Part shown: positions 21,930 to 64,000 of the stretch, one piece after another
How the letters are laid out: each line of letters opens with the position of its first letter
Numbering within the stretch: position 1 is the stretch's first letter
Origin: Candidatus Parcubacteria bacterium
Lineage (GTDB): Bacteria > Patescibacteriota > Minisyncoccia > UBA6257 > HR35
Length of the DNA: 64,000 bases
Assembly (NCBI GenBank): GCA_026004535.1
Contig: BPJI01000001.1
Span: 324,523-388,522, forward strand
Reading direction: 5' to 3'
Translations under genes and position numbers: made by a program
Notes under the pieces: generated by a model
What the model was told of the DNA's origin: nothing
The model's input: only the letters and a program-made list of their open reading frames with translations
Databases searched by the model: none

Positions 21930-23893
21930 CAGATTATCGAGCTGAGCATATTCAAGTTTTAGAAGGCATTGAAGCGGTCAGAAAAAGACCAGGAATGTAC
22001 ATTGGTGGTACAGGTCTTGATGGATTGCATCATTTAATTTGGGAAATTGTTGCTAATAGTGTTGATGAAGCTTTGGCCGGTTATGCTAAAAATATCGAGG
22101 TAGTAATTGAAAGCGAAAATCGAATTAGGATCAGCGATGATGGTCGAGGTATTCCTGTTGAGATTCACCCTAAAACAAAAAAATCTGCCCTAGAGACAGT
22201 CTTAACCATACTTCACGCTGGCGGAAAATTTGATCAGAAAATTTATAAATCAGCTGGCGGTCTTCATGGTGTTGGCGTTAGTGTTGTTAATGCTTTATCA
22301 AAATATTTAAAAGCAATTGTTAAAAGAGATGGCTATGTTTGGACGCAAGAATATAAACAGGGAAGAGCAATAACTGAACTCAAAAAAGGAAAACCAAGCA
22401 AAGAAACAGGAACAACAATAATTTTTGAACCTGACCCACAGATCTTTCCTGAAATTAAATGGGAAACAAAAAGAATTTTAGATTATCTTCGTCATCAAGC
22501 CTATTTAACCCCGGGTTTGAGAATTAATTTTATTGATGAAAGAAATAACTTTCGTTATAGTTTTTATTTTGAAAAGGGCTTACAATCATTTTTTGAACAT
22601 TTAATTTTAAATAAAAATCCAGTAATTCAAGATTATATTTACTTTAATGAAAAAGGAGAAAATTTTCAATTAGAAGTGGCTTTTACCTATTTAGAAAATA
22701 ATGAGATCAATGAATACTTTTTTACTAATAATATCTTAAACGCTGAGGGAGGGACTCACCAATTGGGTTTTCGTTCGGCGTTGGTGAAAATATTTAATAA
22801 AGTTGGTAGCGAGTTGGGATTGATTAAAGAAACAAGTGGTCTAACAATTAATAGTGAAGATATTCGTGGTGGTTTGATTGTGATTTTATCTTTGAAAATT
22901 CCTGAGCCTCAATTTGAAGGTCAAACAAAAGCTAAACTTGGCAATCCTGAAGCAAAAAACATAGTCGAAGATGTAGTGAGTAGAAATTTAGAAGAATATT
23001 TACATAAGAATCCTGATAAAGCAAAAACAATTTTAAATCGTGTACTTTTAAACACTCAGGCGAGAAAAGCTGCTAAAGCTGCTCGTGAGACAATTTTTAA
23101 AAAAAGAATTCAAGCTGGTCTTACCTTATCTGGTAAATTAGCAGATTGTTCTTCTCGTGATCCAGAAAAAAGAGAGTTATTTGTGGTTGAGGGTGATTCT
23201 GCTGGTGGTTCAGCTAAACAAGGCAGAAATAGAATTTTTCAAGCGGTTTTGCCCTTACGAGGAAAAATTTTGAATGTTGAAAAAGCTAATTTGGAAAAAA
23301 TTTTAAAATCTCAAGAAATAAAAAATTTAATTATTGCTTTGGGCACAGGTTTTGGTAAAGATTTTAATTTAGAAGGTTTAAGATATTCAAAAATAATTAT
23401 AGCCACTGATGCTGATTCTGATGGTAATCATATACGAACATTGCTTTTAACTTTATTTTATAGATATATGAGGCCATTAATTGAGCAAGGTTTTATTTAT
23501 ATTGCCCAACCACCATTATATAAAATTCAAGTTGGCAAAGAAATTTACTATGCTTATTCTGATGCTGAAAAAGACAAAATAATCGCAGACTTGACGCAGA
23601 CCAAACGCAGAACTTCGCAGACCAAACGCAAACAATTACAAACCTTAGAAACTCAGGCTGAAAATAAATCTATTAATATTGATGTTCAAAGATATAAAGG
23701 TTTAGGTGAAATGAATCCTGAAGAACTTTGGGAGACAACCTTAAATCCTGAAAAAAGGGTCTTAAAGAAAGTGACAATTGAAGATGCTGAGGAGGCGGAT
23801 AGATTATTTACAATTTTGATGGGTCAGGAAGTCGAACCACGAAAATTATTTATTGAAACTTATGCTCAGGAAGTTAAGAATCTTGATATATGA
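21926..23893 (+). CDS. gyrB: DNA gyrase subunit B
   Basis: GHKL ATPase (…EVVIESENRIRISDDGRGIPV…), TOPRIM …VEGDSAGGSAKQGR…, …LPLRGKILNVEKA…, C-terminal …KNLDI. Contains an in-frame repeat insertion at about 23584-23640. Confidence 0.9.
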   Translation: MTDYRAEHIQVLEGIEAVRKRPGMYIGGTGLDGLHHLIWEIVANSVDEALAGYAKNIEVVIESENRIRISDDGRGIPVEIHPKTKKSALETVLTILHAGGKFDQKIYKSAGGLHGVGVSVVNALSKYLKAIVKRDGYVWTQEYKQGRAITELKKGKPSKETGTTIIFEPDPQIFPEIKWETKRILDYLRHQAYLTPGLRINFIDERNNFRYSFYFEKGLQSFFEHLILNKNPVIQDYIYFNEKGENFQLEVAFTYLENNEINEYFFTNNILNAEGGTHQLGFRSALVKIFNKVGSELGLIKETSGLTINSEDIRGGLIVILSLKIPEPQFEGQTKAKLGNPEAKNIVEDVVSRNLEEYLHKNPDKAKTILNRVLLNTQARKAAKAARETIFKKRIQAGLTLSGKLADCSSRDPEKRELFVVEGDSAGGSAKQGRNRIFQAVLPLRGKILNVEKANLEKILKSQEIKNLIIALGTGFGKDFNLEGLRYSKIIIATDADSDGNHIRTLLLTLFYRYMRPLIEQGFIYIAQPPLYKIQVGKEIYYAYSDAEKDKIIADLTQTKRRTSQTKRKQLQTLETQAENKSINIDVQRYKGLGEMNPEELWETTLNPEKRVLKKVTIEDAEEADRLFTILMGQEVEPRKLFIETYAQEVKNLDI

Positions 23894-24425
23894 AAATTGG
23901 TTTGCGTTTGTTTTTTCGATCTTGATCACTTTTTTATTTTTTAAAAATATTTATCTAGCTTCATTTCTTTATTTTTTAGTTTTAACTTATTTTCTTGGTT
24001 CCTTGCCTCAAAGTTTATTTTTCAGCTTTGTCTTTCTACCTTTGATTTTTATCTTTAATCAACAAATTTCTTTGCCGTTAATTTCAACTTTAATTTTATT
24101 TCTGCTTATTTTTGGCTCGTTTAAAAAAACCAAATTTTTACCTTGGTTAATTGTAATTCTAATAACGCTTTTTCTTTTTTATTTTAATTTTTTAGAAAAA
24201 ATTAATTTACCCTTAACAATCTTTCTTTTTGTTCTGATTACTTTTTATTTTTCTCTTGTCTTTTTGCGCCTAGATGTTTTTACGGCCCTTATTTCTGCCC
24301 TCATTCTTTTAGAAGCTTCATTTTTGTTGCAATTTTTACCGGCATCTTTTTTTGTTAGAATTTTTATTATTTTACTTTTCTTGCTTCTGCTTTTAAAATT
24401 TGATATAATTAAAAAACTCCAATGA
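23853..24425 (+). CDS. hypothetical polytopic membrane protein
   Basis: 190-aa ORF of very hydrophobic, Phe/Leu-rich helices. Overlaps the gyrB 3' end by 41 nt. Confidence 0.4.
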
Positions 24426-25012
24426 CAAATTTAGTACCAATAGTAATTGAAAAAACACAATATGGCGAGAGAGCCTATGATATTTATTCAAGACTTTTGA
24501 AAGAAAGAATTATTTTCTTAGGCACTCCAATTAATGACATTGTTGCCAATAGTATTATTGCTCAGCTTTTATATTTGGAGCATGAAGATCCAGGTAAAGA
24601 TATTCATTTTTACATTCATAGTCCTGGCGGTGAACTGCCGGCTGCTTTAGCGATTTATGATACAATGCAATTTATTAAATGTGAGATTCGAACAATTGGT
24701 ATTGGTTTAGTTGCTTCGGCTGCCTCAATTTTGTTAGCCGCCGGAACAAAGGGAAAAAGATTTGCTTTACCTAATACAGAGATTTTGCTTCATCAGGTAA
24801 TGGCTGGTCCAATTGGTGGTCAGGCAGTTGAAATTGAAATTGCTGCTAAGGAAATTGTTAAGTTAAAAGAAAAAGTTAATAAAATTTTAGCTGAGCATAC
24901 TGGTCAACCTTTAGAAAGAATTGAAAAAGATACAGATAGGGATTTTTGGCTTTCAGCTGAAGAAGCAAAAAATTATGGTTTGATTGATAAAATTTTAGTT
25001 AAGCGGGCGTAG
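24422..25012 (+). CDS. clpP: ATP-dependent Clp protease proteolytic subunit
   Basis: …[26 protein letters not shown]…HSPGG…[16 protein letters not shown]…. Confidence 0.9.
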
Positions 25013-25077
25013 TTCAGCCAGGTTAGAACGCTGCCCTGTCACGGCAGAGGTCGCCGGTTCAAATCCGGTCGCCCGCG
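25003..25077 (+). tRNA. tRNA-Asp (anticodon GTC)
   Basis: GCGGGCG…CTGTCAC…GCCGGTTCAAATCCGGTCGCCCGC; overlaps the clpP stop codon by about 10 nt. Confidence 0.85.
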
Positions 25078-28289: not shown

Positions 28290-28440
28290 CAGGGTTAATT
28301 TGAAATACCGGATATTAGTTAACCAGATATTAACCAGATAATATTTATCTACCCTGATGTTAACCGGATAAGTTACCCGGATTATAACCAGATAATATCT
28401 GGTAGACATCAGGGTAATTCATCTGGTAGTAATCTGGGTA
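28290..28440. repeat. CCGGAT/CCAGAT-type periodic palindromic element
   Basis: …ataccggatattagttaaccagatattaaccagataat…; right half …atctggtagacatcagggtaattcatctggtagtaatctgggtag…. Confidence 0.6.
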
Positions 28441-28447
28441 GTACATA

Positions 28448-28969
28448 ATGAATCAGATAAATTGGAAGAGGGTTTGGGCCACGGTCGGAGTAGCTATGGG
28501 AGTATTAATTATCGGTTTTTTGGTTTGGTATTTATTTTCCAAGCCTTCACCAGTCGTTCAAAAACAAGAACAAAAATTACCCGGAGGATTGACAGCCGAA
28601 GATTTGAAAAAAATTCCAGTCCCTGAACCAGGAGAAAAAGTTGAACAAAAAGTTGCTGTTCCCAAAGAAGCTGTAAAAGCAGGCCCAGAAACTGAAAGTA
28701 AATTAAGAATTTTTGAAATTAAAGGAGAAAATGGAACAATTTCACCAGTAATGTTTCGTGCTTATCAAAATGATATTATTAATATAAAATTAACTGCAGT
28801 TGATAAGGATTATGAGTTAAGATTGGAAGGTTATAATCTTGAGGTTAAAGCACAAAAAGGAGAAACAAAAACAATTGAATTTCAAGTTCTCAATCCAGGA
28901 GTTTTTAATTTATATTGTTCGGAATGTAGAACAGAGAAAGTGGGAAATGTGATTGTGGTTCCGAGATAG
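28448..28969 (+). CDS. membrane-anchored exported protein, possible cupredoxin-like beta-sandwich C-terminal domain
   Basis: N-terminal TM (VWATVGVAMGVLIIGFLVWYLF). C-terminal …TIEFQVLNPGVFNLYCSECRTEKVGNVIVVP resembles a cupredoxin-like strand arrangement. Fold call is weak. Confidence 0.4.
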   Translation: MNQINWKRVWATVGVAMGVLIIGFLVWYLFSKPSPVVQKQEQKLPGGLTAEDLKKIPVPEPGEKVEQKVAVPKEAVKAGPETESKLRIFEIKGENGTISPVMFRAYQNDIINIKLTAVDKDYELRLEGYNLEVKAQKGETKTIEFQVLNPGVFNLYCSECRTEKVGNVIVVPR

Positions 28970-28994
28970 CTTTCAGGTAGTCAGCTTTCAGCTT

Positions 28995-29378
28995 TCAGGT
29001 TTCAGCTTTCAATTTTGAGATCATTTTATTTAGCATTTTCATTACATCTTTTAAAAGTAAATCCACCTTAGAGTAATCGATATTTTTTGTTTCTTTCAAT
29101 CTTTTGGCTATTTCTAAATGTGTTTCTAATTCAGCAGACGAGGCATAAGCAATTTTTAAAAATTGGACAAAGTCTCTTCTTGTTCTTCGAGATCGTCCTT
29201 CAGCTATATTGGCTGGAATAGAAACAGCCGCTCTCTTGATTTGGCTTACCAATCCATATATTTCTTCTTTAGGAAAATGTTTAGTTAGTTCATAAATTGC
29301 AATGACTAATTCAATAGCTTTTTGCCATACAAGTAAATCACGATAAGATAGAATTTGCCTGTCAGGAGTTTTTCTCAT
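28995..29378 (-). CDS. four-helix-bundle protein ('23S rRNA IVS protein' family), copy 2
   Basis: MRKTPDRQILSYRDLLVWQKAIELVIAIYELTKHFPKEEIYGLVSQIKRAAVSIPANIAEGRSRRTRRDF…. Confidence 0.7.
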   Translation of the reverse strand: MRKTPDRQILSYRDLLVWQKAIELVIAIYELTKHFPKEEIYGLVSQIKRAAVSIPANIAEGRSRRTRRDFVQFLKIAYASSAELETHLEIAKRLKETKNIDYSKVDLLLKDVMKMLNKMISKLKAET

Positions 29379-29464
29379 ATAATAATTTTATCAAAAATAT
29401 TTCACTGAAAGCTGACAGCTAATTAATTATATGAAAGCTGACAGCTAATTCCCTGAAAGCTAGG

Positions 29465-31183
29465 ATGAAAAATCCTGAAATTGCAAAATTATTAAGGATG
29501 ATGGGAATTTATTTGCAGATGAAGGGAGTTCAGTTTAAGCCGCAGGCTTATGAGAAAGCTGCTTATTCGATTGAGGCTTTGGATGAGGATATTGAAGAAT
29601 TTATTAAAAAAAATGGCAAAGAAGGATTGAAAAATTTACCCGGAGTAGGGGAGTCAATTGCAGAAAAAATAATTGAATATTTAAAAACAGGAAAAATTAA
29701 AGAACTGGAAGAATTAAAAAAAGAAGTACCAGTTGATGTTGAGACCTTAACTTCAATTGAAGGAGTTGGGCCAAAGATTGTTTATAAACTTTATAAAGCT
29801 TTGGGAATAAAAACAATTGAAGATTTAGAAAAAGCTTGTCGGGAGCATAAAATAAGAAGATTGCCTGGATTTGGAGAAAAAAGTGAAGAAAAAATTTTAA
29901 AAGGAATTGAATTTTTCAAACAAGGTGGAGGAAGAGTAATTTTGGGTTTTATTATTCCCGTGGTTGAAGAATTAGTAAGTTATTTAAAAGAAAGTGGGTT
30001 GGCCAAAGAAGTTGTGCCTGCTGGTTCTTATCGTCGAAAAAAAGAAACAATTGGTGATATTGATATTTTGGCTGTTTCTGATAAACCTGAAAAATTAATG
30101 GATTATTTTGTCAAGTTTCCTGAAGTAAGTAATATTTATGCTCAAGGACCAACTAAAACTATGGTTAGACTAAAAATTGGGCTTGATGCTGATTTAAGAG
30201 TTGTACCCGAAGAAAGTTTTGGTGCTGCGCTGGCTTATTTTACTGGCTCAAAGGATCATAATATTAAAATGAGGGAATTGGCAATTAAGAAAGGATGGAA
30301 ATTGAATGAATATGGACTTTTTGATAAACAGGAAAAAATGATAGCTGGCAGAACTGAAGAAGAAATTTATGAAAAACTTGGTTTAGATTGGATACCACCT
30401 GAGATGAGAGAAAATCGAGGTGAGATTGAATTAGCAATGGAGGGGAAATTACCAAAATTGATTGAATATGGTTCAATTAAGGGTGATTTGCAAGTTCAGA
30501 CAAATTGGACTGATGGCCAAAATTCAATTGAGGAAATGGTTGAGGAAGCAATTAAATTAGGTTTGGAATATATTTGCATTACTGATCATACTAAATCTTT
30601 GGCAATGACTGGTGGTTTGGATGAGGAAAAATTATTAAAGCAGATGGCTGAGATTGATAAATTAAATCAAAAATATAAAGGCAAGATAAAAATTCTAAAA
30701 GGAGCGGAAGTTAATATTTTAAAAGATGGTAGTTTGGATATCAAAGATGAAGTTTTGGCAAAATTAGATTTTGTTGGCGCTGCTATTCATAGTCATTTTA
30801 ATTTACCTCGAAATGTTCAAACTGAAAGAATTAAAAAAGCAATGGCTAACCCTAATGTTGATTGTATTTTTCATCCAACTGGCAGAGTGATTAACAAAAG
30901 ACCTGCTTATGAAGTTGATATTGATGAAATTATTGATTATGCTAAAAAGACTAAGACTATTTTAGAAATTGATGCTTATCCTGATAGACTTGATTTGAAA
31001 GATGAACATATAAGAAAGTGTGTTGAAAAAGGAGTAAAGATGGTAATTGATAGTGATGCTCATTCAGTTTTACATTTAGGTTTTTTAGATTTAGGAGTGA
31101 GCCAAGCACGTCGTGGATGGGCAACGCCGTCCGATATTATTAATACTTTAGCATATGATAAATTCAATTCATTAATTCATTAG
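29465..31183 (+). CDS. DNA polymerase X family protein (Pol-beta-like core plus C-terminal PHP phosphoesterase domain)
   Basis: HhH motifs (GVGESIAEKI, GVGPKIVYKL), palm …GSYRRKKETIGDIDIL…, PHP …ITDHTKSLAMTGG…HSHF…DSDAHS…. Confidence 0.85.
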   Translation: MKNPEIAKLLRMMGIYLQMKGVQFKPQAYEKAAYSIEALDEDIEEFIKKNGKEGLKNLPGVGESIAEKIIEYLKTGKIKELEELKKEVPVDVETLTSIEGVGPKIVYKLYKALGIKTIEDLEKACREHKIRRLPGFGEKSEEKILKGIEFFKQGGGRVILGFIIPVVEELVSYLKESGLAKEVVPAGSYRRKKETIGDIDILAVSDKPEKLMDYFVKFPEVSNIYAQGPTKTMVRLKIGLDADLRVVPEESFGAALAYFTGSKDHNIKMRELAIKKGWKLNEYGLFDKQEKMIAGRTEEEIYEKLGLDWIPPEMRENRGEIELAMEGKLPKLIEYGSIKGDLQVQTNWTDGQNSIEEMVEEAIKLGLEYICITDHTKSLAMTGGLDEEKLLKQMAEIDKLNQKYKGKIKILKGAEVNILKDGSLDIKDEVLAKLDFVGAAIHSHFNLPRNVQTERIKKAMANPNVDCIFHPTGRVINKRPAYEVDIDEIIDYAKKTKTILEIDAYPDRLDLKDEHIRKCVEKGVKMVIDSDAHSVLHLGFLDLGVSQARRGWATPSDIINTLAYDKFNSLIH

Positions 31184-31247
31184 TTCACTAGTTCCGAGCT
31201 CACGGGTTCGATTATAAAAATTAAAAAATTTGAAGATTTAAATATTG
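31166..31247. repeat. about 80-bp direct repeat, copy A (ATTAATTCATTAGTTCACTAGTTCCGAGCTCACGGGTTCGATTATAAAAATTAAAAAATTTGAAGATTTAAATATT)
   Basis: Exact second copy at 31817-31896. The two copies bracket the RelE/ParE cassette. Confidence 0.8.
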
Positions 31248-31317
31248 ACGAATTTTAGAAATATGGTATAATATATAAAACTGAAAAGCTTTGAAGCTTG
31301 GAAGCTGAAAAGCCATT

Positions 31318-31524
31318 TTGAAAATGCCTTTAATTGCTAAAAATAAAAATTTAGAAAGGATCGGTACTTTAGAAGTGATGGGTAAAAAATTTGTTGTTAT
31401 GAGCAAAGAACATTTTGATGAATTGTTGATTCTATTTAAAAGTGTGATAGATGGTGAAAAATTACTGAAGAGGAAAAAAACGAGAAGTTTCGATGAGTTC
31501 CTAAAGAGTATGTCTAAAAAATGA
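31318..31524 (+). CDS. putative type II antitoxin
   Basis: 68 aa, overlaps the downstream toxin by 4 nt. Assigned by position. Confidence 0.45.
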   Translation: MKMPLIAKNKNLERIGTLEVMGKKFVVMSKEHFDELLILFKSVIDGEKLLKRKKTRSFDEFLKSMSKK

Positions 31525-31805
31525 GAATCTTGCGTTCTCATACCACGCCTCAATTTGAAAAAGATTTTTTGTCTTTGCCAAAAGATATTCGTTTAAAAGC
31601 AGAAAGAAAGATAAAACTTTTTGAAGCTAATTGCTTCCATCCATCTTTAAGGGCTCATAAACTTAAAGGTATTCTTCGAGATTTCTGGTCATTTTCTATT
31701 AATAGAACTTACCGAGTAATTTTTAAATTTTTAGAAAATAATGAAGTAATTTATTATCGTATAGGTAGACACGATATTTATCAGCAATTAGAAAAATTAG
31801 TTTAA
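31521..31805 (+). CDS. RelE/ParE-family type II toxin
   Basis: …HPSLRAHKLKGILRDFWSFSINRTYRVIFKFLENNEVIYYRIGRHDIY…. Confidence 0.65.
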   Translation: MRILRSHTTPQFEKDFLSLPKDIRLKAERKIKLFEANCFHPSLRAHKLKGILRDFWSFSINRTYRVIFKFLENNEVIYYRIGRHDIYQQLEKLV

Positions 31806-31816
31806 TAATTAGTTAA

Positions 31817-31896
31817 TTAATTCATTAGTTCACTAGTTCCGAGCTCACGGGTTCGATTATAAAAATTAAAAAATTTGAAGATTTAAATATTTGGAA
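31817..31896. repeat. about 80-bp direct repeat, copy B
   Basis: Identical to 31166-31247. Confidence 0.8.
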
Positions 31897-32230
31897 ATTA
31901 AGTCTTAAAATTACAAAAGAAATTTATGATTTAACCTCTAAAAAAGAATTTTCTAAAGATTTTGCCTTAAAAGATTAACTAAGAAGAGCAATCATTTCTG
32001 TAAGTTCAAATATTGTTGAAGGCTTTGAGAAAAACAATAATAATGAATTTATCAGATTTTTAAAGATTGCTAAAGGTTCTGTTGCTGAAGTTAGAAATCA
32101 ACTTTATATTGCTTTAGCAGTAAATTATATTTCTCAACAAGAATTTGATAGAATAAATAAAAAATTTAGAAGATTTAGCAAGCCAAATTGAAGGCTTTAT
32201 AACTTATTTAGAGAAAGATAGAGAGAATAG
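31880..32230 (+). pseudogene. four-helix-bundle protein remnant (interrupted by stops)
   Basis: IWKLSLKITKEIYDLTSKKEFSKDFALKD*…RAIISVSSNIVEGFEKNNNNEFIRFLKIAKGSVAEVRNQLYIALAVNYISQQEFDRINKKF…; same family as 9326 and 28995, plus strand. Confidence 0.5.
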
Positions 32231-32297
32231 AAAAAGAACTCGTAATTCGTAATTCGGAATTGATAAATTTTGAATTTATGATATAATATAAATAGGA

Positions 32298-35652: not shown

Positions 35653-36075
35653 ATGAAACAAATTAAAAAAATTTTGAAATTAATTATTGAGGGAGGGAAA
35701 GCAACTCCAGCTCCACCATTGGGGCCAAGTCTGGCTCAGTATGGAATTAATATTGGTGAATTTTGTAATCAATTTAATCAAGCGACCAAAGATATACAAG
35801 GAGTTCAGATCCCAGTTGAAGTAACTATTTATGAAGACAGAACATTTTCTTTTGTCTTGAAAAAGCCTCCGATTAGTTATTTAATTAAAAAAGAATTAGG
35901 GATCGAAAAAGGAGCCAAAGAAACGGGTAGAGAAATTATTGGTACTTTAACAAAGGAACAAGTGAGAAAAATTGCTGAAGAAAAATTACCCGATTTAAAT
36001 ACTCGAGACGTTGAAAAAGCAATGAAAATTGTCGAGGGAGTTGCTAAATCAATGGGAGTGAAGATAGCTTCATAG
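35653..36075 (+). CDS. rplK: 50S ribosomal protein L11
   Basis: …GGKATPAPPLGPSLAQYGINIGEFCNQFN…. Confidence 0.9.
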   Translation: MKQIKKILKLIIEGGKATPAPPLGPSLAQYGINIGEFCNQFNQATKDIQGVQIPVEVTIYEDRTFSFVLKKPPISYLIKKELGIEKGAKETGREIIGTLTKEQVRKIAEEKLPDLNTRDVEKAMKIVEGVAKSMGVKIAS

Positions 36076-36129
36076 CTTGTCAGCTTCTTAGTTCTCAGCT
36101 TCTTAGCTTTTCAGCCTCGCAGCTTCTTA

Positions 36130-36252: not shown

Positions 36253-36984
36253 ATGAGATTATTTATTGTTCCAACGCCGATAGGTAATCTAAAAGATATC
36301 ACTTTGAGAGGAATTGAGGTTTTAAAACAAGTTGATTATATTTTTTGTGAAGATACAAGAAGAACAAAAATTTTGCTTGATCATTATGAAATTAAAGACA
36401 AAAAATTAATTTCTTATTTTGCTCCTTTTGAAGCAAAGAAAATTCCACAACTTTTAGAAATTTTAAAAAGAAATGAGGCTGCTTTAGTTGTTGATTCTGG
36501 AATGCCAGTTATTTCTGATCCTGGTTATAAATTGATTAAAGCTTGTTTGGAAAATAGTATTGAAATTGAAGTTTTACCAGGGCCAACTGCTTTTTTGACT
36601 GCTTTGATTGGTTCAGGTTTGCCTTTAGATAAATTTTTATTTTTAGGCTTTTTACCTAAAAAAGGATTGGAAAATTATTTTCGAAAAATAAAAGACTTAG
36701 AAGTAACAATTGCTTTTTATGAATCACCAAAAAGAATATCGAAAACTTTAGAAGTTATTAGAAAGGTTTTTGGTAATTGTCAAGTTGTTATTGCTCGAGA
36801 GGTTTCTAAAATTTATGAAGAATATTTAAGAGGAGATATTGAAGAAATAATTGAAAAATTAAAAGATAAAAAATTAAAAGGAGAGATAACCGTTATAATA
36901 CGCAGAACTACGCATAACGAACGCAGAACTAATAAAAATAGCTTCATAGCTTCCTATCAGCTTCAAAGCTTCTCAGCTTCATAG
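36253..36984 (+). CDS. rsmI: 16S rRNA (cytidine1402-2'-O)-methyltransferase
   Basis: MRLFIVPTPIGNLKDITLRGIEVLKQVDYIFCEDTRRTKILLDHYEI… The C-terminal about 30 codons read through CGCAGAACT and GAAGCT periodic repeats. Confidence 0.8.
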   Translation: MRLFIVPTPIGNLKDITLRGIEVLKQVDYIFCEDTRRTKILLDHYEIKDKKLISYFAPFEAKKIPQLLEILKRNEAALVVDSGMPVISDPGYKLIKACLENSIEIEVLPGPTAFLTALIGSGLPLDKFLFLGFLPKKGLENYFRKIKDLEVTIAFYESPKRISKTLEVIRKVFGNCQVVIAREVSKIYEEYLRGDIEEIIEKLKDKKLKGEITVIIRRTTHNERRTNKNSFIASYQLQSFSAS

Positions 36985-37047
36985 CCTCTTTTTATGTATC
37001 TGCTTAATTGTATTTCGCCTTTAAATTTTAGCACAATTTTCCACATC

Positions 37048-37075: not shown

Positions 37076-37081
37076 TAAATT

Positions 37082-53600: not shown

Positions 53601-54355
53601 TTCTCATCTTTGTTAATATCCATAACTTCAATTGCAGCATAATCTTCTCTATTTTTGGCTTTTCTTTTTTTGTCAATAATTTGGATTGCTCTTTGGATTT
53701 CTTCATCTTTGAATTTAATTAATTTCAAAACTTTATCAATATTTTTTGGTTGTCTGATTAAAGAATCGGCGTCATCAACAAAAACCAAATCAAAATTTTT
53801 AGGAATAATGTCAAAATTTTTATGAAGAAAGTTGGCCGTAGTAAGCAAAATATCAAAATCTTCATTTTTTAATAATTCTTTATCTTCTTTTTCTTTAATG
53901 ATTAAAATTTTTTTATCAGATTTTATATTTTTTAATTTTTTCTCAATCTCACGCAATAAAATTTTTGAAGGGACTAAATAATAAACTTTGCCTGGAAGAA
54001 AATGAGAAATAATGTTACCAAAAGTTGTTTTACCAATTCCGGTAGGAGCAATTATGGAAAAAGATTCTCTTTTTAAGACTCTTTTTGCCCAATAAAGCTG
54101 AAGTCGAAGTGGTTGATGCCCAGTATTTTCTTTAAAAAAATTTATGAATTCTTTTAATTTCTGTAAAACTATGTAATCTTCATTAAAATTCTCCAAGTCC
54201 TCTTTAAGATCGAGATTCTCAGTTATCTTAAATAGGGTTTTTTTAAATCTTTCATAATCTTTATTACACAAGCCATAATTATAGATTTCCTCAAAATTAG
54301 CATCATTTCTATCTATCGGACAAATTTCTAAATAGCGAACGTTTAATTTTTCCAT
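50657..54355 (-). CDS. rgy: reverse gyrase (N-terminal helicase-like domain fused to a type IA topoisomerase)
   Basis: …LQLYWAKRVLKRESFSIIAPTGIGKTTFG…, …DLVFVDDAD…, …ALVLVESPTKAKTIANFF… (TOPRIM), Zn finger CQNCKRH…CPVC. 1232 aa. In-frame repeat insertions at about 52690-52830 and 53390-53460. Confidence 0.8.
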   Translation of the reverse strand: MEKLNVRYLEICPIDRNDANFEEIYNYGLCNKDYERFKKTLFKITENLDLKEDLENFNEDYIVLQKLKEFINFFKENTGHQPLRLQLYWAKRVLKRESFSIIAPTGIGKTTFGNIISHFLPGKVYYLVPSKILLREIEKKLKNIKSDKKILIIKEKEDKELLKNEDFDILLTTANFLHKNFDIIPKNFDLVFVDDADSLIRQPKNIDKVLKLIKFKDEEIQRAIQIIDKKRKAKNREDYAAIEVMDINKDEKGLIIAASATLTPKTKKIALFRELLGFEIGSATTYLRNIEEVYEIINGTNGNNSSAHSDSSAFVSAPSDSSQKIALIKRSIYWLKKLGPGGFVFLNDDFRKEDLNNYIDFLKENSINAVSYEKFNTKNQKAFLENEIQVVVGFSNIRNPLTRGIDLPQKVRYALFLGVPKFKIPLKVSYSPLHLFLLGLTLRETVDEKSLIERNLNFLKKISFLKEEAILADKNLKEKIEPIKRTFEEFLKDEEIIEKIKKHPRITLMTQTDANYTRTNANNNGVKTNINSKENNHLSGNHPGNISSDDPGNNLNYYLVVSDPRGYIQASGRTSRLFPLGLTKGLALILAENEKVLNHLKDKLKILGYEANFKNASEINLTKILEEIDKDRKIVERVLTGEEFTLKDPIETALVLVESPTKAKTIANFFGKPARRIKANIIFYEVSLGNLHLNICATLGHFTDLTHQDGYYGVKKEKGEFVPVFQPLKICQNCKRHLSLNENECPVCNSQNFLSKQELIKNLQKIAFEVDKIYLATDPDTEGEKIAFDLFAYLYPYNQNIKRIELHEITKTEFIKKIKEPRDVDVNLVKAQLLRRISDRWIGFKLSEEIQQHFKNLNLSAGRVQTPVLGWILEKEKRIKNKHYLVNVSINQPNDSQKLTPLYFYLENEDIIKEIKTAFKNQELEIEIKFNRTQEETINPLPPYDTSNLLKDANSFFRFEAPITMRLAQDLFEQGLITYHRTDSVFVSEFGRNVAYEYLERKNLKDLFYKRAWGEIGTHEGIRPTKPLDVQDLIESMILEQKNLTKKHLQLYGLIFNRFIASQMKPSKGKKTEIEIILKTSNHEFVLYKQTQEAFVEITEGNHLQFFKNIKIFNLIEDKFKVENLKIKKVPKEYHYTQGELIDEMKKRGLGRPSTYSTIIQTLIDRKYVLNRSGYLIPVSLGEKIYNYLIKKHKDLVAEEFTIKLEEAMDLVAEGKKDYQKILNDTFKRVFQ

Positions 54356-54378: not shown

Positions 54379-55209
54379 ATGCATCTTAAAGAATTGATTT
54401 ATTCATTAAAAACAGGAGAAGCAATTTTACATTATAATGTTGCTACCCTTGAACAAATAAAAGCTGGAATTTTAGCAGTTCAAGAAACAAAAATTCCATT
54501 AATTTTTGGTGTTTCAGAGGGAGAAAGAAATTATTTGAGCCCTGCTTTAGTAAAAGAGATAATTGATTTTTATAAAAAAGATTTGCCAATCTTTTTAAAT
54601 GCTGATCATTCAAAGAGTTTTGAGACAGCAAAACAAGCAATTGATTTAAATTATGATGCAGTTTTGTTTGATGGAAGTGAACTTACTTTAGATGAAAATA
54701 TAAAAATTACAAAAGAATTAATTAACTATCGAGGAGATAAAAATATTTTAATTGAAGGCGAGATTGGTAAAATTGAAGGTAAATCTGAAATTCAAAAAGA
54801 AGTTGAGGTAAAAAAAGAAAATCTAACTAAAGTTGAAGAAGCAATTAAGTTTGTTGAAGAAACAAAAGTTGATTTATTAGCAGTTTCGATCGGTAATATC
54901 CATGGTATTACCGAAAAAGAACCAGAGCTTGATTTTGAAAGGGGCAGGGAAATAGCTCAAGCCGTAAAAATTCCATTGGTTTTACATGGTGCCTCCGGAC
55001 TTTCTTTAGAAAAAATAAAAAAATGTATTGAAATTGGTTTTAAAATAATCCATCTTAACACTGAGTTTAGAAAAATTTGGAAAGAAAAATTAATTGAGGA
55101 ATTGGGGAAAGAAACAGTAACTCCTTATAAAATTTTAGAACCAGTTGTTGAAGAGATTAAAAAGAAAATTGTTTATTATCAGGTTAGGTTTCAGGATTCA
55201 GGAAGTTAG
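54379..55209 (+). CDS. fba: class II fructose-/tagatose-bisphosphate aldolase family protein
   Basis: …ILHYNVATLEQIKAGILAVQETKIPLIFGVSEG…NADHSKS…LHGASG…. The C-terminus reads through a GGTTAGG-type repeat. Confidence 0.75.
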   Translation: MHLKELIYSLKTGEAILHYNVATLEQIKAGILAVQETKIPLIFGVSEGERNYLSPALVKEIIDFYKKDLPIFLNADHSKSFETAKQAIDLNYDAVLFDGSELTLDENIKITKELINYRGDKNILIEGEIGKIEGKSEIQKEVEVKKENLTKVEEAIKFVEETKVDLLAVSIGNIHGITEKEPELDFERGREIAQAVKIPLVLHGASGLSLEKIKKCIEIGFKIIHLNTEFRKIWKEKLIEELGKETVTPYKILEPVVEEIKKKIVYYQVRFQDSGS

Positions 55210-55232
55210 GTTTTAGGAAATTAGGTTTCAGG

Positions 55233-56579
55233 TTAATTGATTCTTTTCAAAATAATTCCTCCGCCTAAAACGATGTCATCTTTATAAAAAACTATTGATT
55301 GACCTGGGGCAACAAATTTTTGAGGTTCGAGAAATTCAATGAACGCAGACCCTCGCAGACTGTGCGCAGACTTTTGCAGACTATACTCAGATTCACGCAG
55401 AATAAGTTTTGCTTTAACTAAGGGTTGTCTATGGCGAAAACGAACATCAATAATTATAGAATTACCCGGATGATTACCTGATAGATTACCCGGATGATTA
55501 CCTGATAGATTACCCGGATGATTACCGGATGAATAGTTATTGTTTATATAGTCTGCGTAAGTCTGCGTGTAGTCTGCGTGGGTCTTCGTTTTATCTGTAT
55601 TAGTCTGAGGAAACAAAATTTCTTTTTCTAAGATATTAATTTCAGTAATTTCAATTTTTTGGCTATAAAGTAAAGGATGACCTTCTTTAGCAACAACAAT
55701 TAAATTTTCTTCAGGAATTTTTTGAGCTACATAATATGGGCCATCACCAACTTTAATATTAAGTCCATGTCTTTGGCCTTCAGTGAAATAAAAATAACCA
55801 GGATGAGTGCCTAGGATCCTTCCTTCAGTATCAATAATTTTACCTTCTTTTGGTTTTAAATATTGACTTAAAAATTCTCTTAATTTTACTTGGCCAACAA
55901 AGCAAATTCCCATACTTTCCTTCTTCTCAGCAACTGGTAAATTATATTTTTTAGCAATTTCTCTAACTTCAGTCTTTAGCAAATCGCCAACAGGGAAAAT
56001 TATTTTTGAGAACTTTTCTTTTTCAATTGACCAAAGAAAATAAGTTTGATCTTTATCCTGATCTTTTGCTTTTAAAAGATGAATTTCAGATGTATTACCC
56101 TGATGTCCACCGGATATATTACCCAGATAATTACCTGATGAATTATTTCTTTTATTAGATTCTATATTAAGATTGTCTTTCTTATTGTTCGCATCAGTTC
56201 GCGTTAAGTTCGCATCGATTTGCGTTCGAGCATAATGTCCTGAAGCAACCATCTCATAACCTAAATTTAAAGCTTTATCAAAAAATACGCCAAATTTTAT
56301 AAACTGATTGCAGTAGACATCTGGATTAGGAGTTAAGCCCTTTTCATAAGTTCGAATCATATAGTTTATAACTTTTTCTTCAAATTCATCGGTTAAATCA
56401 AAAACATAAAAAGGAATATTTAAAATTTCAGCTACTCGACGAGCATCTTCAGCATCTTGAGGATTACAAAAATCAAAACAATGTAAATGAACACCAACGA
56501 GATTATAACCTTTTTCTTTTAAAAGCAAAGCTGAAACTGAAGAATCAACTCCTCCAGAAAGAAGAACAGCTATTTTCAT
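55233..56579 (-). CDS. mnmA: tRNA-specific 2-thiouridylase MnmA
   Basis: MKIAVLLSGGVDSSVSALLL… PP-loop. Two long in-frame insertions of CCGGAT plus GTCTGCGT repeat DNA (55340-55580, 56090-56230). Confidence 0.85.
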   Translation of the reverse strand: MKIAVLLSGGVDSSVSALLLKEKGYNLVGVHLHCFDFCNPQDAEDARRVAEILNIPFYVFDLTDEFEEKVINYMIRTYEKGLTPNPDVYCNQFIKFGVFFDKALNLGYEMVASGHYARTQIDANLTRTDANNKKDNLNIESNKRNNSSGNYLGNISGGHQGNTSEIHLLKAKDQDKDQTYFLWSIEKEKFSKIIFPVGDLLKTEVREIAKKYNLPVAEKKESMGICFVGQVKLREFLSQYLKPKEGKIIDTEGRILGTHPGYFYFTEGQRHGLNIKVGDGPYYVAQKIPEENLIVVAKEGHPLLYSQKIEITEINILEKEILFPQTNTDKTKTHADYTQTYADYINNNYSSGNHPGNLSGNHPGNLSGNHPGNSIIIDVRFRHRQPLVKAKLILRESEYSLQKSAHSLRGSAFIEFLEPQKFVAPGQSIVFYKDDIVLGGGIILKRIN

Positions 56580-57345: not shown

Positions 57346-57465
57346 CTCATTCAGCTTTACAGCTTCCTAGCTTCACAGCTTATCAGCTTCAAAAAATTAT
57401 AATATAATTATTATATCATAGAAGCTTTAAAGCTATGAAGCTTGGAAGCTGATAAGCTATTTTTT

Positions 57466-57536: not shown

Positions 57537-57788
57537 ATTGAGTAATTAACATTTTTACCATTTTAGTTTGTTCCACATCTTCCCTGTCCGTTTCCTTCTG
57601 TTTAGTATATGTCGGAAGGAGCAGAAGCGGACGCAGAACCATCGGAAGGAGCAGAAGAATTATTTCCGCTTGTTCCGTATCCTTTTCTGTTTATTCCGCA
57701 TTTTCCATGTCCGTTTCCGTTCATTTCGTTTTTTCCGTGTCCGCTTCTGTTCATTTCGCCTTTAAATTTTAGCACAATTTTCCACATC

Positions 57789-57817
57789 TTGACATCATAT
57801 TTTTTTCTATTTATAAT
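57789..57817 (+). promoter_or_regulatory. sigma70-like promoter (TTGACA-17-TATAAT), duplicate of 37048
   Basis: Identical upstream 60 bp to the 37082 gene. Confidence 0.5.
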
Positions 57818-57823
57818 TAAATT

Positions 57824-58144
57824 ATGAATAAAAAAATGAATAAATCCTTCACTTTAGTTGAACTCTTAGTTGTCTTAGCTCTAATAGCTATCTTAGCTAC
57901 TGTCTTAATTGTTGTCATTAAGCCAGCAGATATCTTTAAAAGAGGTAGAGATAGTCAAAGAACTTCAGACCTTAAAAATCTTGAAAAAATATTTGACCTT
58001 ATTCTTTTTGAAACTCAAGGCACCTTTTCTGAACTTCAATATGCTTCTTCAAATGTTGTCTATATCTCTCTTCCTGATACTTCATCAACTTGTGGTCAAT
58101 GGATAAGTCAATTACCACAGCTTCCTTCAGGCTGGTCATATTGA
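57824..58144 (+). CDS. type IV pilin-like module (identical to 37082..37402) ending at the same in-frame TGA
   Basis: 100% identical N-terminal module; TGA at 58142-58144. Confidence 0.7.
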   Translation: MNKKMNKSFTLVELLVVLALIAILATVLIVVIKPADIFKRGRDSQRTSDLKNLEKIFDLILFETQGTFSELQYASSNVVYISLPDTSSTCGQWISQLPQLPSGWSY

Positions 58145-58972
58145 TGCTCAGCAACTCCAACAAATATTGATGGTACTGGCTGGATTCCTATTCCTTTTAA
58201 TCAATTTTCAAGCATTAATCTTTCTAGACTTTTCATTGATCCAATCAATAGACCTCCATATTACTATGCATTTGTTGCTGGAGGAAGTTATGAGTTAACA
58301 GCAGCTTTAGAAGTTAAGACGAATAAAGGAGATGGGTCAATTTCTGCTAATGATGGGGGAGATGATGATTATATTTATGAAAAAGGAACTAATTTAAATT
58401 TAACTCCTTTAGTTGTTCAAGGTAGACTTCTCACAAATTCTATTTACGCTGTTAGTGGTAGTTGTGATAACTCTACTTATTGTGGTTATATGGATAATCA
58501 TAGTGAAGCTGATGCTATTAGAAATTTTCCAGCCAACATCTGTAAAAAATATGTTGATAAATTATATTGGGGTTCAGTGTGTGATAATACAAACCCTGAA
58601 AGTGGAGTTAGGAATTATTTTTATTCACGTTTTAGATTTTTGTTTGTTCCTGATGTAAGTGGAACATGGTATTTTGCTGTTGATAGTAATGATGGAGCGG
58701 AATTAATATTAAATAAAGATGATTCTGATAACGACCACACAAAACACACTTTAATTGCTTCATGGTATGGTGTGCATGGTTGGTGTAATTGTCAAAATGC
58801 AAGTGGCACGATTGATATGATTGCAGGTCAAGGATATTGGTTTGATTATATTCAAGAAGAATGGAGCGGAGTTGAAGCGGCCGTTTTATGGGTAAAAAGG
58901 CCAGGAGATGTTTGGAAAGTTTTAAGTGTTACTAATTTTCCTAATCAAATATTTGCAAGGCCTGCATATTAG
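58145..58972 (+). other. in-frame stop-free continuation after the TGA: PA14/GLEYA-like carbohydrate-binding domain
   Basis: Same frame, 276 codons with no stop. …VSGTWYFAVDSNDGAELILNKDD… resembles PA14. Confidence 0.45.
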
Positions 58973-60885: not shown

Positions 60886-61482
60886 ATGTTAATTCCGTTA
60901 TTTAAAAAAATTATTGAATTTTTTGATTCTTTTCCTGAAATTGGGCCGAGACAGGCAATGAGACTATTTTTTTGGTTGGTTAAGCAAGATAAAGAAACGA
61001 AAAATAAATTTTTGGAAAATTTAAAAGTTTTATTTGAAAATGTAAATTTCTGCCAAAATTGTTTTTTTCCAACAACAGAAAAACTTTGCTTAATTTGTTC
61101 TAATCCTAAAAGGAAAGATGAAATAATTGCTTTAGTCGCTCGAGAAACCGATGTTTTAAGTTTAGAGACAGCTAAAGTTTTTAAAGGTAAATATTTTATT
61201 TTAGGTGGTTTAATTTTGCCTTTTGAGGATAAGGGTTTGATTAAAGAAAGATTAAAAATTCTTGAAAAAAGATTAGAAGATGGAAAAATTGAAGAAGTTA
61301 TTGTTGCCTTACCTTATACGCGCGAGGCTGAACCAACTTTAAAACATTTAGAAATTTTAAGAAAAAAATTCCCCCAAGTTAAATTTAGTTTTTTAGCTAA
61401 AGGAATTCCTCTTGGCGGTGAGATTGAATTTATTGACCCAGAGACATTAAAAGAAGCAATTGAAAAACGAATATCGCCCTGA
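60886..61482 (+). CDS. recR: recombination protein RecR
   Basis: C4 zinc finger FCQNCFFPTTEKLCLIC plus Toprim domain. Confidence 0.85.
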   Translation: MLIPLFKKIIEFFDSFPEIGPRQAMRLFFWLVKQDKETKNKFLENLKVLFENVNFCQNCFFPTTEKLCLICSNPKRKDEIIALVARETDVLSLETAKVFKGKYFILGGLILPFEDKGLIKERLKILEKRLEDGKIEEVIVALPYTREAEPTLKHLEILRKKFPQVKFSFLAKGIPLGGEIEFIDPETLKEAIEKRISP

Positions 61483-61484
61483 TT

Positions 61485-61720
61485 TACATCGGATGAATTT
61501 ACCCGGATTTAAACCGGATATAATTACCCGGATGTAAACCGGATATAACTACCCGGATGTAAATCGGATAATAGCTACCCGGATTTAGACCGGATGATTC
61601 ATAAAATATTTTTAATCCGGTAGTTTATCTGGGTAAAATAAATCCGATATTAATCCGGGTAATATTTTAATCCGGTATTTATCCGGGTAATCTATCCGGT
61701 TGGTTATCCGGGTAGTTAAG
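61485..61720. repeat. CCGGAT-type periodic palindromic element
   Basis: …tttacccggatttaaaccggatataattacccggatgtaaaccggatataactacccggatg…, then reverse-complement half …atccggtagtttatctgggtaaaataaatccg…. Confidence 0.7.
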
Positions 61721-62186: not shown

Positions 62187-62266
62187 TAGAAAAATATTAT
62201 ACTCAAAATTTTTTGTCTGTCAAGTTTTTGAAAATTTTTGAAAATTTTATAAAATGAATGTTATAA

Positions 62267-62707: not shown

Positions 62708-62744
62708 TAATTAAGTATCGCTAACAACTTTAGAAAATTTTCAA

Positions 62745-62955
62745 CCGCTGACAGCTGCGGAAATGTTTTAACCACTAGGATGGTCTATTGGATATAGTTA
62801 CCCGGATAACCAACCGGATATCTATTTACCCGGATAACTTACCGGATTATATTTACCCTGATGATTACCGGATAAATCCGGTTTATATCCGGGCAGTGGT
62901 TATCCGGTTTAAATCCGGGTAGAAAATATTTTTCAGCTGCTGTCCGCGGTAAATA
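62745..62955. repeat. CCGGAT-type periodic palindromic element with inverted flanks (CCGCTGACAGCTGCGGAAA … TTTTCAGCTGCTGTCCGCGGT)
   Basis: Seen directly. Shares the right terminus with 13300-13660. Confidence 0.7.
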
Positions 62956-62962
62956 TATATAA

Positions 62963-64000
62963 ATGAAAATAAAAATTGGTCTTTGTGGATTGCCTAATAG
63001 TGGTAAATCAACTTTTATTAAGCTTGTTAGTCAGGTTGAAGTTTTAATTGCTTCTTATCCATTTACAACCTTAAAAGCCCAAGAATATGCGGTTCCAATT
63101 TTTTCTGATGAATTAAAATTACTCCATTCAATCACTCAAACAAAAGAAGTTATTCCTCCTTATTTATTTTTCGTTGATGTTCCAGGGCTTATTCGTGGTG
63201 CCCATAAAGGCGATGGTTTGGGTAATGAATTTTTAAGTTATTTAAGAGGCTGTGATGTTATTCTAGAAATTGTAAGAAATTTTAAAAGAGAAGAGGTTCC
63301 TCATCCTGAGGGTGATATCAATCCTTTAAGAGATATTAAAATTATTGAAGAAGAGATCTTTTTAGCTGATAAAGAAATAATTGAACGAACAATCAAAAAA
63401 TTAGAAAAAGAAAAAAATAAAGAGGGAGAAGAAAAAATAAAAGCTTTGGAAAATATATTAACTAAAATATACTCAGAACTAAACAGAACTAACTCAGAAC
63501 TAACAGAAACTAATACAGAATTAGTAGAAAGTAAAATAGATAAAATTCAAAGATTTACTGAATTTAATGAACTATTAAAAGAATTTAATCTGCTTTTAAC
63601 TAAAGAATGGTTTTTGTTGATTAACGGAGAGGCTACGGATTTACACGGATTTAATTCATCCACGGATTTACACGGATTGAATTTGCCCACGGATTTAGGC
63701 GGATCGTTTAAGAATGTTTATAATTTAGATTTATTATGGGAAATTGAACTTATAGAAAGTAAAATCCAAGAAAATGAATTTAAACCCAAAGTTTTTGATT
63801 TTTTAAATCAATTTAGAAAAGATCTTGGCCTAATTCAATTTTTTACCTTTACTCGAGATATTACTCAGGGATGGTTTGTTAAGAAAGATAGCTCAATGAT
63901 TGAGGCAGCAACTTTGATTCATACTGATTTTGGTGTAAAATTTAAAATAGCTGAAACAATTTTTCTAGAAGATTTTGTTAAAATTTGTAAGTCACGGATT
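62963..64000 (+). CDS. ychF: ribosome-binding ATPase YchF (Obg-like), 3' end beyond the window
   Basis: MKIKIGLCGLPNSGKSTF…, …FTTLKAQEYAV…, …FFVDVPGLIRGAHKGDGLGNEFLSYLRGCDVILEIVRNF…. No stop before the window end. Two in-frame repeat insertions (63470-63540, 63630-63700). Confidence 0.8.
   Translation, partial: MKIKIGLCGLPNSGKSTFIKLVSQVEVLIASYPFTTLKAQEYAVPIFSDELKLLHSITQTKEVIPPYLFFVDVPGLIRGAHKGDGLGNEFLSYLRGCDVILEIVRNFKREEVPHPEGDINPLRDIKIIEEEIFLADKEIIERTIKKLEKEKNKEGEEKIKALENILTKIYSELNRTNSELTETNTELVESKIDKIQRFTEFNELLKEFNLLLTKEWFLLINGEATDLHGFNSSTDLHGLNLPTDLGGSFKNVYNLDLLWEIELIESKIQENEFKPKVFDFLNQFRKDLGLIQFFTFTRDITQGWFVKKDSSMIEAATLIHTDFGVKFKIAETIFLEDFVKICKSRI

Follow-up and report, generated by a model that had tools for sequence, protein, structure and literature searches.

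The DNA considered here is a stretch of 64,000 nucleotides (nt) from contig BPJI01000001.1 of a Candidatus Parcubacteria bacterium, and the term window is used below for the whole of it. Its GC content is about 30%, and it holds compact housekeeping genes, nine tRNA genes, and a bacterial 16S rRNA gene (333-1858). Pfam identifies among its genes those for GyrB, an RsmI-type methylase, CTP synthase, a ROK kinase, ArgRS, reverse gyrase (helicase plus topoisomerase IA), MnmA, and a class II aldolase. Open reading frames (ORFs) cover 78% of the window, and the coding share of the genome is about 80-87%. Short tandem units of a few sequence families recur in this dense arrangement, both between genes and in frame inside them, and it is this repeat DNA that is the subject of the present analysis.

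The full-length reverse gyrase gene is found at 50657-54355, in a candidate-phyla-radiation (CPR) genome of about 0.56 Mb, and the nearest genomes are metagenome-assembled genomes (MAGs) from hot springs (KatS3mg094, HR35, and several Paceibacterota or Patescibacteria bins). Because reverse gyrase is present and the relatives are hot-spring MAGs, the sequence points to a thermophilic CPR lineage as the host. Three syntenic loci from Joint Genome Institute hot-spring metagenomes (L001, L003, and L004) cover the window from 44 to 63 kb and were compared with it, as were L005, the nearest species in the pyrG comparison, and L006, which is bacterium HR35. In L004 (12011-15495) the gene calls split reverse gyrase into two ORFs, of 401 and 767 amino acids (aa), that overlap. 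Repeats were called by Tandem Repeats Finder (TRF), and their coordinates were then refined by alignment (Table 1).

In its full form an element consists of two inverted arms, each made of tandem 10-14-nt units, around an AT-rich loop; the whole is thus an inverted repeat, with outer ACGCAGAC/GTCTGCG-type units at its ends. The arm units belong to the CGCAGAC, CAGAACT, GCGAAC, (A/G/C)CGGAT, AGCTTC, and related families, and two core words, TACCCGGA and ATCCGGGTA, occur 37 and 33 times in the window against expectations of 0.43 and 0.19. Nesting is frequent: the loop of a CGCAGAC- or CGGAT-type foldback then houses a CCCGGAT/ACCGGAT foldback. Copies vary by entire units and range from about 24 to 390 nt, none contains an ORF, and the units are imperfect, with TRF arrays matching at 62-96%. 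Arrays amount to 373 nt per 10 kb in the window, more than at any other of the 165 loci compared (median 0). A sequence-only reading of this DNA had given the periods as 9 or 21 nt, about one or two helical turns; 21 nt holds as a double unit, but no 9-nt element family was found. The units instead repeat every 10-11, 12, or about 13.5 nt, which gives double units of 21, 24, and 27 nt, and any match to the helical turn is probably incidental. A 9-nt array at 37122 was considered as an element and rejected, being an ordinary hydrophobic pilin segment.

Table 1. Repeat arrays inside genes (upper rows) and between genes (lower rows) of the window
Location	Positions	Strand	Codons	Composition and remarks	Fold z
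gyrB	23584-23671 (aligned insertion 23606-23671)	+	22 (aa 561-582)	five CGCAGAC-type units (10-11 nt)	
rsmI 3' extension	36899-36989 (aligned 36901-36981)	+	~25	three ACGCAGAAC and six CAGCTTC units	
pyrG	42945-43061	+	39	five CAGAACT units, AT-rich loop, reverse-complement units; itself a hairpin	-2.2
ROK kinase	45029-45069 (aligned 45034-45069)	+	8-12 extra	TTCTGCG-type array (LRSSASVLRSSAL)	
argS, C-terminal	48939-49043	-	27 + 5	CACGGAT/ATCCGTG family; BLAST-similar to intergenic 6243-6330	
argS, middle	49236-49271	-	8 net	ELTRIKSELTRI	
argS, N-terminal	50382-50450	-	23	INADNNPHKSVLNPRKS	
reverse gyrase, composite	52691-52831	-	42-47	GCGAAC units, AT-rich spacer, ATCCGG units	
reverse gyrase, second	53393-53467	-	25	TTCCG/CGGAA family	
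mnmA, site 1	56088-56219	-	44	GCGAAC units, spacer, decayed ATCCGG units; between two beta-strands; pLDDT 40-53	
mnmA, site 2	55455-55613	-	49-53	three ACGCAGAC and three 24-nt ATCCGGTAATCATCCGGGTAATCT units (SGNHPGNL x3)	
mnmA, site 3	55344-55394	-	15-17	five to six GTCTGCG units; C-terminal beta-barrel loop; pLDDT 58-77	
ychF, first	63467-63532	+		CAGAACT family (SELNRTNSELTETNTEL)	
ychF, second (insertion or replacement)	63629-63706	+		CACGGAT family (TDLHGFNSSTDLHGLN)	
fba C-terminus	55183-55232	+	last 8 (55183-55206)	these codons and the stop inside AGGTTTCAGG array	
ORF 6832 C-terminus	9197-9244	+	last 6 (9199-9216)	these codons inside AGGTTTCAGGGATTAGGGATT array	
ATCCGTG array	6198-6331			27-nt double unit; resembles argS and ychF insertions	-4.8
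Composite foldback	13310-13645			forward CCCGGAT/ACCGGAT arrays, reverse-complement arrays, then outer GCTGTCCGCGGT	-11.3
CCGGAT/CCAGAT foldback	28307-28443				-4.3
One-armed AGCTTC array	36065-36129			after rplK	-0.1
Largest element	47990-48375			outer ACGCAGAC unit; 12 forward and 15 reverse CC(C)GGAT units	-12.0
CAGCTTC/GAAGCT foldback	57351-57460			beside tRNA genes	-9.8
TTCCG-type array	57612-57763			30-nt period; resembles reverse gyrase insertion 53397-53463	
CCCGGAT foldback	61477-61718			between convergent recR and greA	-8.4
Nested element	62745-62955			between nudix gene and ychF; outer ACCGCTGACAGCTGCGG/CTGCTGTCCGCGGT pair around CCCGGAT foldback	-4.4

Between genes, the strongest foldbacks fold far better than shuffled sequence (z = -8 to -12), the others more weakly. 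The arms of the largest element consist of TACCCGGAT and ACCGGAT alternating every 12-13 nt on either side of an AT-rich loop, and the murJ-PAP2 spacer that houses it measures 405 nt in the window versus 14 nt in three relatives. The spacer between recR and greA is 0 nt long in L004, 130 nt in L001, where it is a CACGGAT foldback, and 239 nt in the window, where it is a CCCGGAT foldback; the nudix gene and ychF overlap in L004. The foldbacks at 13310-13645, 61477-61718, and 62745-62955 follow the plan of the largest element, and two of them carry an outer CTGTCCGCGG-type pair. Between recR and greA of L003 there is a G+C-rich insert of about 210 nt (7315-7527) that is probably structured and has no match in Rfam.

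The proposal that genic and intergenic repeats belong to the same families is borne out by common motifs and by BLAST matches of 83-88% identity between genic and intergenic copies, namely 88% over 67 nt between reverse gyrase 53397-53463 and intergenic 57612-57678, and 83% over 75 nt between intergenic 6250-6322 and ychF 63704-63632. Reverse gyrase 52696-52828 and mnmA 56093-56225 are 73.7% identical over 133 nt, and in L003 the 13-residue peptide RRLTQTERRLTQT is identical in ArgS and cobalamin adenosyltransferase, the underlying DNA being about 90% identical. Moreover, the inner modules form two subfamilies, CCGGAT and CCGAAT, a given array having a single variant throughout both of its arms and either variant being found at several loci, which fits the copying of whole elements. 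Both subfamilies are present in L001, L003 is restricted to CCGAAT, and the window is restricted to CCGGAT. When viral contigs were scanned for the triple CCCGGAT/ACCGGAT pattern, there was no match and thus no sign of a phage origin; a 62-aa element peptide had no match in a database search whose word index is unsuited to short low-complexity queries.

Inside genes, TRF found short-period repeat DNA in intact ORFs, identified by Pfam, at all the places where it had been reported, in total 16 segments and 418 codons in gyrB, pyrG, rsmI, the ROK kinase gene, argS, the reverse gyrase gene, mnmA, and ychF, and at least 10 of about 55 genes in the 64 kb are affected. Several of the limits first drawn needed correction. 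The repeat reported at 42937-43010 in pyrG is the left arm only, the right arm running on to about 43061, and the gyrB repeat DNA does start at 23584 but extends past 23640, the aligned insertion spanning 23606-23671. Both argS sites stand, but a further one (49236-49271) had been missed; the C-termini of fba and ORF 6832 are indeed repeat-derived, but merely over their last 8 and last 6 codons. Apparent read-through of repeats at the start of several ORFs, such as those at 41032 and 45887 (tmk), was put down to over-extended ORF calls. An assembly artefact was likewise rejected, as insertions of the same kinds are present in independent assemblies from several projects.

The segments are lineage-specific in-frame insertions, as the sequence-only reading had held, for orthologues have no equivalent residues at any internal insertion, and alignment finds the internal segments missing from solved MnmA, CTP synthase, GyrB, and reverse gyrase as well as from close relatives. 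In gyrB the insertion occupies the variable loop before QRYKGLGEM, where it is absent from seven relatives (57-82% identity) and where comparison with solved GyrB gives 18-22 extra residues. Residues 463-502 of CTP synthase stand where solved structures have a four-residue turn, and both the pyrG and the gyrB insertions fall at breaks in the alignment with solved homologues. Reverse gyrase has extra stretches at residues 294-335 and 449-560 relative to its solved homologues, and in MnmA residues from about 124 to 163 and a stretch within 317-410 have no counterpart in solved structures. The rsmI genes of L006 and L005 stop directly after KGEITII(V/L)R, at which point the window gene continues for about 25 codons. 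At the N-terminal argS site a related insertion is present at the same place in L001, and L003 and L004 are empty; mnmA site 2, in an inter-domain linker, is unique to the window genome. The peptides encoded by the inserts include SGNHPGNLSGNHPGN and RTDTELSRTDTELGR.

All internal insertions are in frame and contain no stop codons. Copy number changes in frame-preserving steps, as had been anticipated, with a 21-nt difference in pyrG between the window and L005 and a double-unit spacing of 21 nt in 18 of 21 coding cases (CGCAGA, CAGAAC, and CGAAC families). In the CCGGAT family genic copies are spaced at 24 nt; between genes the distance ranges from 24 to 28 nt and is divisible by three in only 12 of 32 cases. 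This family is strongly depleted in ORFs, with 12 of 81 copies there against the 78% of the window that ORFs cover; CGCAGA, with 24 of 27 copies in ORFs, is not under-represented. The best TRF period modulo three fails to separate coding from non-coding arrays, TRF reporting the 10-11-nt monomer, but the distance across two units does tell them apart; hexamer frame-usage tables were usable for the CCGGAT family only, being otherwise too noisy.

The 418 inserted residues are 17% hydrophobic, compared with 34% in the rest of the same proteins, and they are enriched in Asn and Ser (14.4% each, versus 5.7% and 4.4%) and also rich in Thr, Arg, and His. Whether the insertions lie in loops was checked by structure for MnmA alone, and there they do. 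An AlphaFold model built on a 71-sequence alignment (one built on 20 close sequences was unusable, with a mean predicted local distance difference test score, pLDDT, of 44) has a mean pLDDT of 83, with the core above 90 and the insertions at 36-77 (36-69 for site 2), and its core superposes on solved MnmA with a template modelling (TM) score of 0.86-0.89. Exactly three segments are low in confidence: residues 123-164 separate two strands, residues 322-372 lie between the middle domain and the C-terminal one, and residues 396-411 belong to the loop of a beta-hairpin. The insertions most likely add floppy surface loops to enzymes.

Presence and copy number differ among the relatives compared. 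L004 is without every element over the 44-63 kb region of the window, where its spacers are 0-14 nt, and different elements are found in L001 and L003, in positions that may or may not coincide with those of the window, within mnmA, fba, tmk, ROK, argS, and ychF; among these, the copies in tmk of L001 and in fba of L001 and L003 display the full nested plan in frame. Motif repertoires differ between genomes, and L004 and L005 are essentially free of motifs. Across 14 genomes pyrG has five insertion sites, and at the site used in the window the insertion is common to L005, one 21-nt unit shorter there, and 8 of 13 relatives are empty.

The most detailed record is that of MnmA, whose length ranges from 344 to 448 aa among 20 close relatives. 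When the insertion columns are left out of a neighbour-joining tree, 17 sequences fall into one clade whose branches are very short, and within it site 1 measures 5, 31, 55, 59, or 66 residues and site 3 from 2 to 69, and empty and filled alleles are nearest neighbours. Site 3 gives a series of 14 aa (P0009), 21 aa (P0002), and 69 aa (P0008), the last with a CCCGGAT foldback in the loop of a CGCAGAC hairpin, and comparison of fba in L003 and L001 similarly reveals an inner element added within an outer one. Nesting in frame is also seen at mnmA site 1 of L003, where four ACGC(G/T)GAC units, four (C)CCGAAT units, a loop, two ATTCGG(G) units, and four GTCTGCGT units follow one another and encode the peptide TNADYTRTDAD...YPNDNRI...ENSGNN...SLRESASSLRKSAS. 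Near-identical element peptides occur at different sites, namely site 3 of P0008 and site 1 of P0010. In the window gene the left-orientation ACGCAGAC array of site 2 (55549-55597) pairs with the right-orientation GTCTGCG array of site 3 across about 70 nt of conserved coding sequence (RNA fold z = -6.96 for 55330-55620, minus strand).

We consider it probable, at roughly 70%, that the segments are copies of repeat elements that form hairpins and belong to a dispersed, non-autonomous system. The elements would be selfish DNA, foldback-like or similar to MITEs (transposable elements of the miniature inverted-repeat type), nearly neutral and filtered by selection. Whole elements would be copied to new sites between and inside genes, by transposition or recombination, AT-rich spots and the loops of earlier copies would be preferred as entry sites, slippage would lengthen and shorten the arms by whole units, and AT-biased mutation would later erode the arrays. 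Within genes, a copy would be kept only if its length were a multiple of three, if it were stop-free, and if it encoded a hydrophilic peptide in a surface loop or linker; on translation, the surviving copies would give extended, disordered loops in which Asn, Ser, Thr, and Arg abound. The first of these steps, whole-element copying, and the last, selection within genes, are visible as patterns in the data described above, and the targeting of loops and the slippage of arms are what we infer to have happened between them. A family X DNA polymerase with a PHP domain, a gap-filling repair polymerase, is encoded at 29465-31183, and it is pure speculation that it might be a player in repeat expansion or fold-back repair.

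A number of observations weigh against this interpretation. In the 64-kb window Pfam reveals no transposase or candidate mobilising gene, and there is no partner autonomous element with matching ends. Comparison of filled and empty sites does not establish a target-site duplication: one pair is compatible with an AT-rich duplication of 2-4 nt, which is weak evidence as the DNA is AT-rich, and at other boundaries the picture is obscured where host codons have been replaced. Identity between copies at different loci is only about 74-92%, and so gives no sign of very recent transposition. Most genic arrays are one-armed and fold like shuffled sequence (z about 0), as would be expected if one arm had eroded once the element was in place. 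The first unit at mnmA site 1 coincides with conserved host codons, turning Ala-Lys-Thr into Ala-Arg-Thr with an Arg codon that differs by genome and matches the repeat family of that genome, which would suit local homogenisation as well as insertion. Finally, translation of the segments is presumed, from intact frames, the lack of stops, and periods divisible by three.

Some of these same points would be expected if the repeats had arisen where they stand, without mobility, by duplication in place and slippage, with fold-back repair copying an arm to its reverse complement and with convergence or ectopic gene conversion producing the similarity between loci. Units are more alike within than between arrays (96% for the 24-nt units of mnmA), relatives differ by single units, the first unit of mnmA site 1 overlaps host codons, many arrays have one arm, and neither a transposase in the window nor a target-site duplication was found; moreover, the tandem repeats of Borgs obey a rule of unit lengths divisible by three inside ORFs (PMC9879509). 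However, the same composite order of outer family, spacer, and inner family is met at unrelated loci with 74-92% identity, diagnostic subfamily substitutions are common to both arms at several loci, near-identical peptides occupy different sites in different genomes (the P0008 and P0010 case), and the units are imperfect rather than perfect copies, all of which makes local birth unlikely as the whole explanation. A mixed model, in which local amplification and fold-back repair act on seeds moved by recombination or transformation, is possible.

Two further explanations are, to about the same degree, improbable. The motifs might be protein-binding or DNA-uptake sequences (competence or type IV pilus) spread by biased uptake, with genic copies as by-products. 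One 9-mer is about 100-fold over-represented, at some one copy per 1.7 kb, inverted copies stand between convergent genes as known uptake sequences do, pilus genes are present in the window, and near-identical strains differ in whether an allele is filled or empty, as transformation would give; yet there are several unrelated motif families in one genome and different repertoires in sister genomes, the arrangement is one of long tandem arrays and nested foldbacks rather than single sites, and a sister genome does well without the motifs. Alternatively, the insertions might be selected for function, as disordered loops that tune enzymes, for example in their interactions or heat tolerance. Insertions recur at the same loop sites, the one in pyrG has been retained since the split from L005, and the peptide composition is biased, but L004, a close relative from the same samples, has no insertions, content and length at one site vary freely, identical DNA families occupy non-coding spacers, and recurrent sites are equally explained by structural tolerance.

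That the segments behave as introns, inteins, or ribosomal bypass elements, and so are absent from the mature protein, is very unlikely even though some form hairpins (pyrG; mnmA 55330-55620, z = -7.0), because every segment is in frame and stop-free, which removal would not need, and Rfam finds only rRNA and tRNA in the window and no intron family; in addition, segments of 8-53 codons are far too small for inteins, lack intein motifs and junction residues, and look quite different from the genuine dcd intein of L006. That intein, of 420 aa, interrupts the dCTP deaminase gene of bacterium HR35 (1292-3124) at a PGEP|(M/C)WEG site, with a Cys N-terminal junction, an Asn-Cys C-terminal junction, and a LAGLIDADG-like motif by eye; the insert has no Rfam match, and dcd of the window (43383-44006) is without it.

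A bolder proposal may be entertained, tentatively and at less than even odds: that the segments represent a new class of prokaryotic foldback element restricted to a thermophilic Paceibacteria clade, with tandem 10-14-nt arms, nesting in hairpin loops, and CGCAGAC and CAGAACT families that are adapted to genes, the 21-nt double unit of these families being open in all six frames. The closest match in architecture is with the foldback (FB) transposons of Drosophila and other eukaryotes, which are kilobases long and have inverted arms of short tandem sub-repeats, variable in length and often unequal. We know of no foldback transposon noted for in-frame residence in essential genes, and the elements described here, in a bacterium, are far from kilobases long and have no transposase in the 64 kb.

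In behaviour the nearest parallel is with the Rickettsia palindromic elements (RPEs), hairpin-capable families that are found between genes and in frame in housekeeping genes at tolerated surface positions (PMC10969869). The sequence-only reading drew this parallel, which is apt as a description of behaviour; membership is not claimed, and host and build differ. Both are dispersed hairpin families, in frame in many unrelated housekeeping genes and with a characteristic peptide per family, and both are insertions that orthologues lack, the loop position being tested here for MnmA. However, the present host is a thermophilic CPR bacterium and not Rickettsia, the likeness is one of behaviour, lengths are about 24-390 nt versus about 100-150 bp, and the arms here are tandem 10-14-nt units with nested modules and copy-number steps of 21, 24, or 27 nt.

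Bacterial MITEs (Correia, ERIC, BOX, Nezha) are small and non-autonomous, with inverted termini and occasional in-frame gene fusions (PMC10969869). The present elements resemble them in size, in having no capacity to encode a transposase, and in their terminal inverted repeats, but differ in the tandem-unit interior and nesting, in a far higher genic fraction, and in having no partner insertion sequence in the window. The tandem repeats of Borgs evolve fast, are found in spacers and ORFs, and inside ORFs have units divisible by three and create disordered regions (PMC9879509). The double units of 21, 24, or 27 nt in ORFs and the hydrophilic, low-pLDDT insertions described here are reminiscent of them; Borg repeats, in contrast, are perfect, private to a locus, and direct only, where those of the window are imperfect, belong to shared families, and form palindromic pairs. 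Repetitive extragenic palindromes (REPs) and the bacterial interspersed mosaic elements (BIMEs) built from them are extragenic, 20-40 bp, marked by a GTAG or CGTC tag, alternating in orientation, and associated with a RAYT gene (PMC3733652). They too are abundant, clustered, short palindromic repeats, but the present elements have no GTAG/CGTC heads and many genic copies, and no Y1 transposase domain is found in the window. Coding palindromes, that is, long inverted repeats inside translated genes, have been described in the mitochondrial genes of Nematomorpha (PMC6649704); there both arms encode conserved protein, whereas here the arms are extra, non-conserved insertions.

Other repeated sequences are present in the window. 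Two genes for a 23S-rRNA-intervening-sequence protein, a four-helix bundle with a weak bAvd-like match, lie on the minus strand at 28995-29378 and 9326-9655, in cassettes (28968-29461 and 9197-9667) that are each bracketed by inverted AGCTTTCAGG/CCTGAAAGCT arrays and share 81% identity over 551 nt; in the 28995 copy the repeat array supplies the C-terminal codons. A further 8-nt family, TTA(A/G)CGAG, occurs at 2661-2686, downstream of tRNA-Leu and inside an over-extended ORF call (2361-3446), and at 19977-20003, where the stop codon of ORF 18701-19996 and the beginning of the following gene both fall within it. Direct repeats of 86 nt, 96.5% identical (31161-31246 and 31807-31891), bracket about 560 nt in the 1.1-kb stretch between polX and clpB (31184-32297), which has no convincing ORF. 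A 563-nt segment is duplicated at 98% identity (36989-37550 and 57730-58292) and carries a type IV pilin-like gene (37082-37402 and 57824-58144). Two genes for giant surface proteins, 6832-9219 (RCC1 repeats) and 9866-12454, are 96.5% identical in their promoter and first 200 or so codons (6792-7451 versus 9826-10485), and both proteins hold long internal repeats with periods of 114, 342, and 231 nt. An AbiEii-type nucleotidyltransferase toxin gene (38907-39527) is on the strand opposite to its neighbours, near tRNA-Glu and a CACGGAT array (38284-38337).

No description of such elements in CPR bacteria was found in the open-access literature, an absence that is no proof. Rickettsia is the classic case of selfish DNA surviving in essential genes through translation, and the window offers an independent and denser one, in a tiny and nearly spacer-free genome where coding sequence itself becomes the habitat of the element. 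Its modular build makes gain, loss, nesting, and growth by unit steps visible among co-occurring strains, and the existence of element-free and element-rich sister genomes allows a clean comparison toward the mobilising activity. For the host group there are consequences for annotation and phylogenomics: gene lengths are inflated, spurious extensions are called at N- and C-termini, and alignments contain artefacts. For the proteins, the insertions amount to a natural experiment on how far GyrB, CTP synthase, ArgRS, MnmA, and reverse gyrase tolerate loop insertions at high temperature, and they suggest a route by which disordered regions are born. If the proposal of a new foldback class is true, the surface loops of essential enzymes would be continually remodelled in a genome with almost no spacer DNA.

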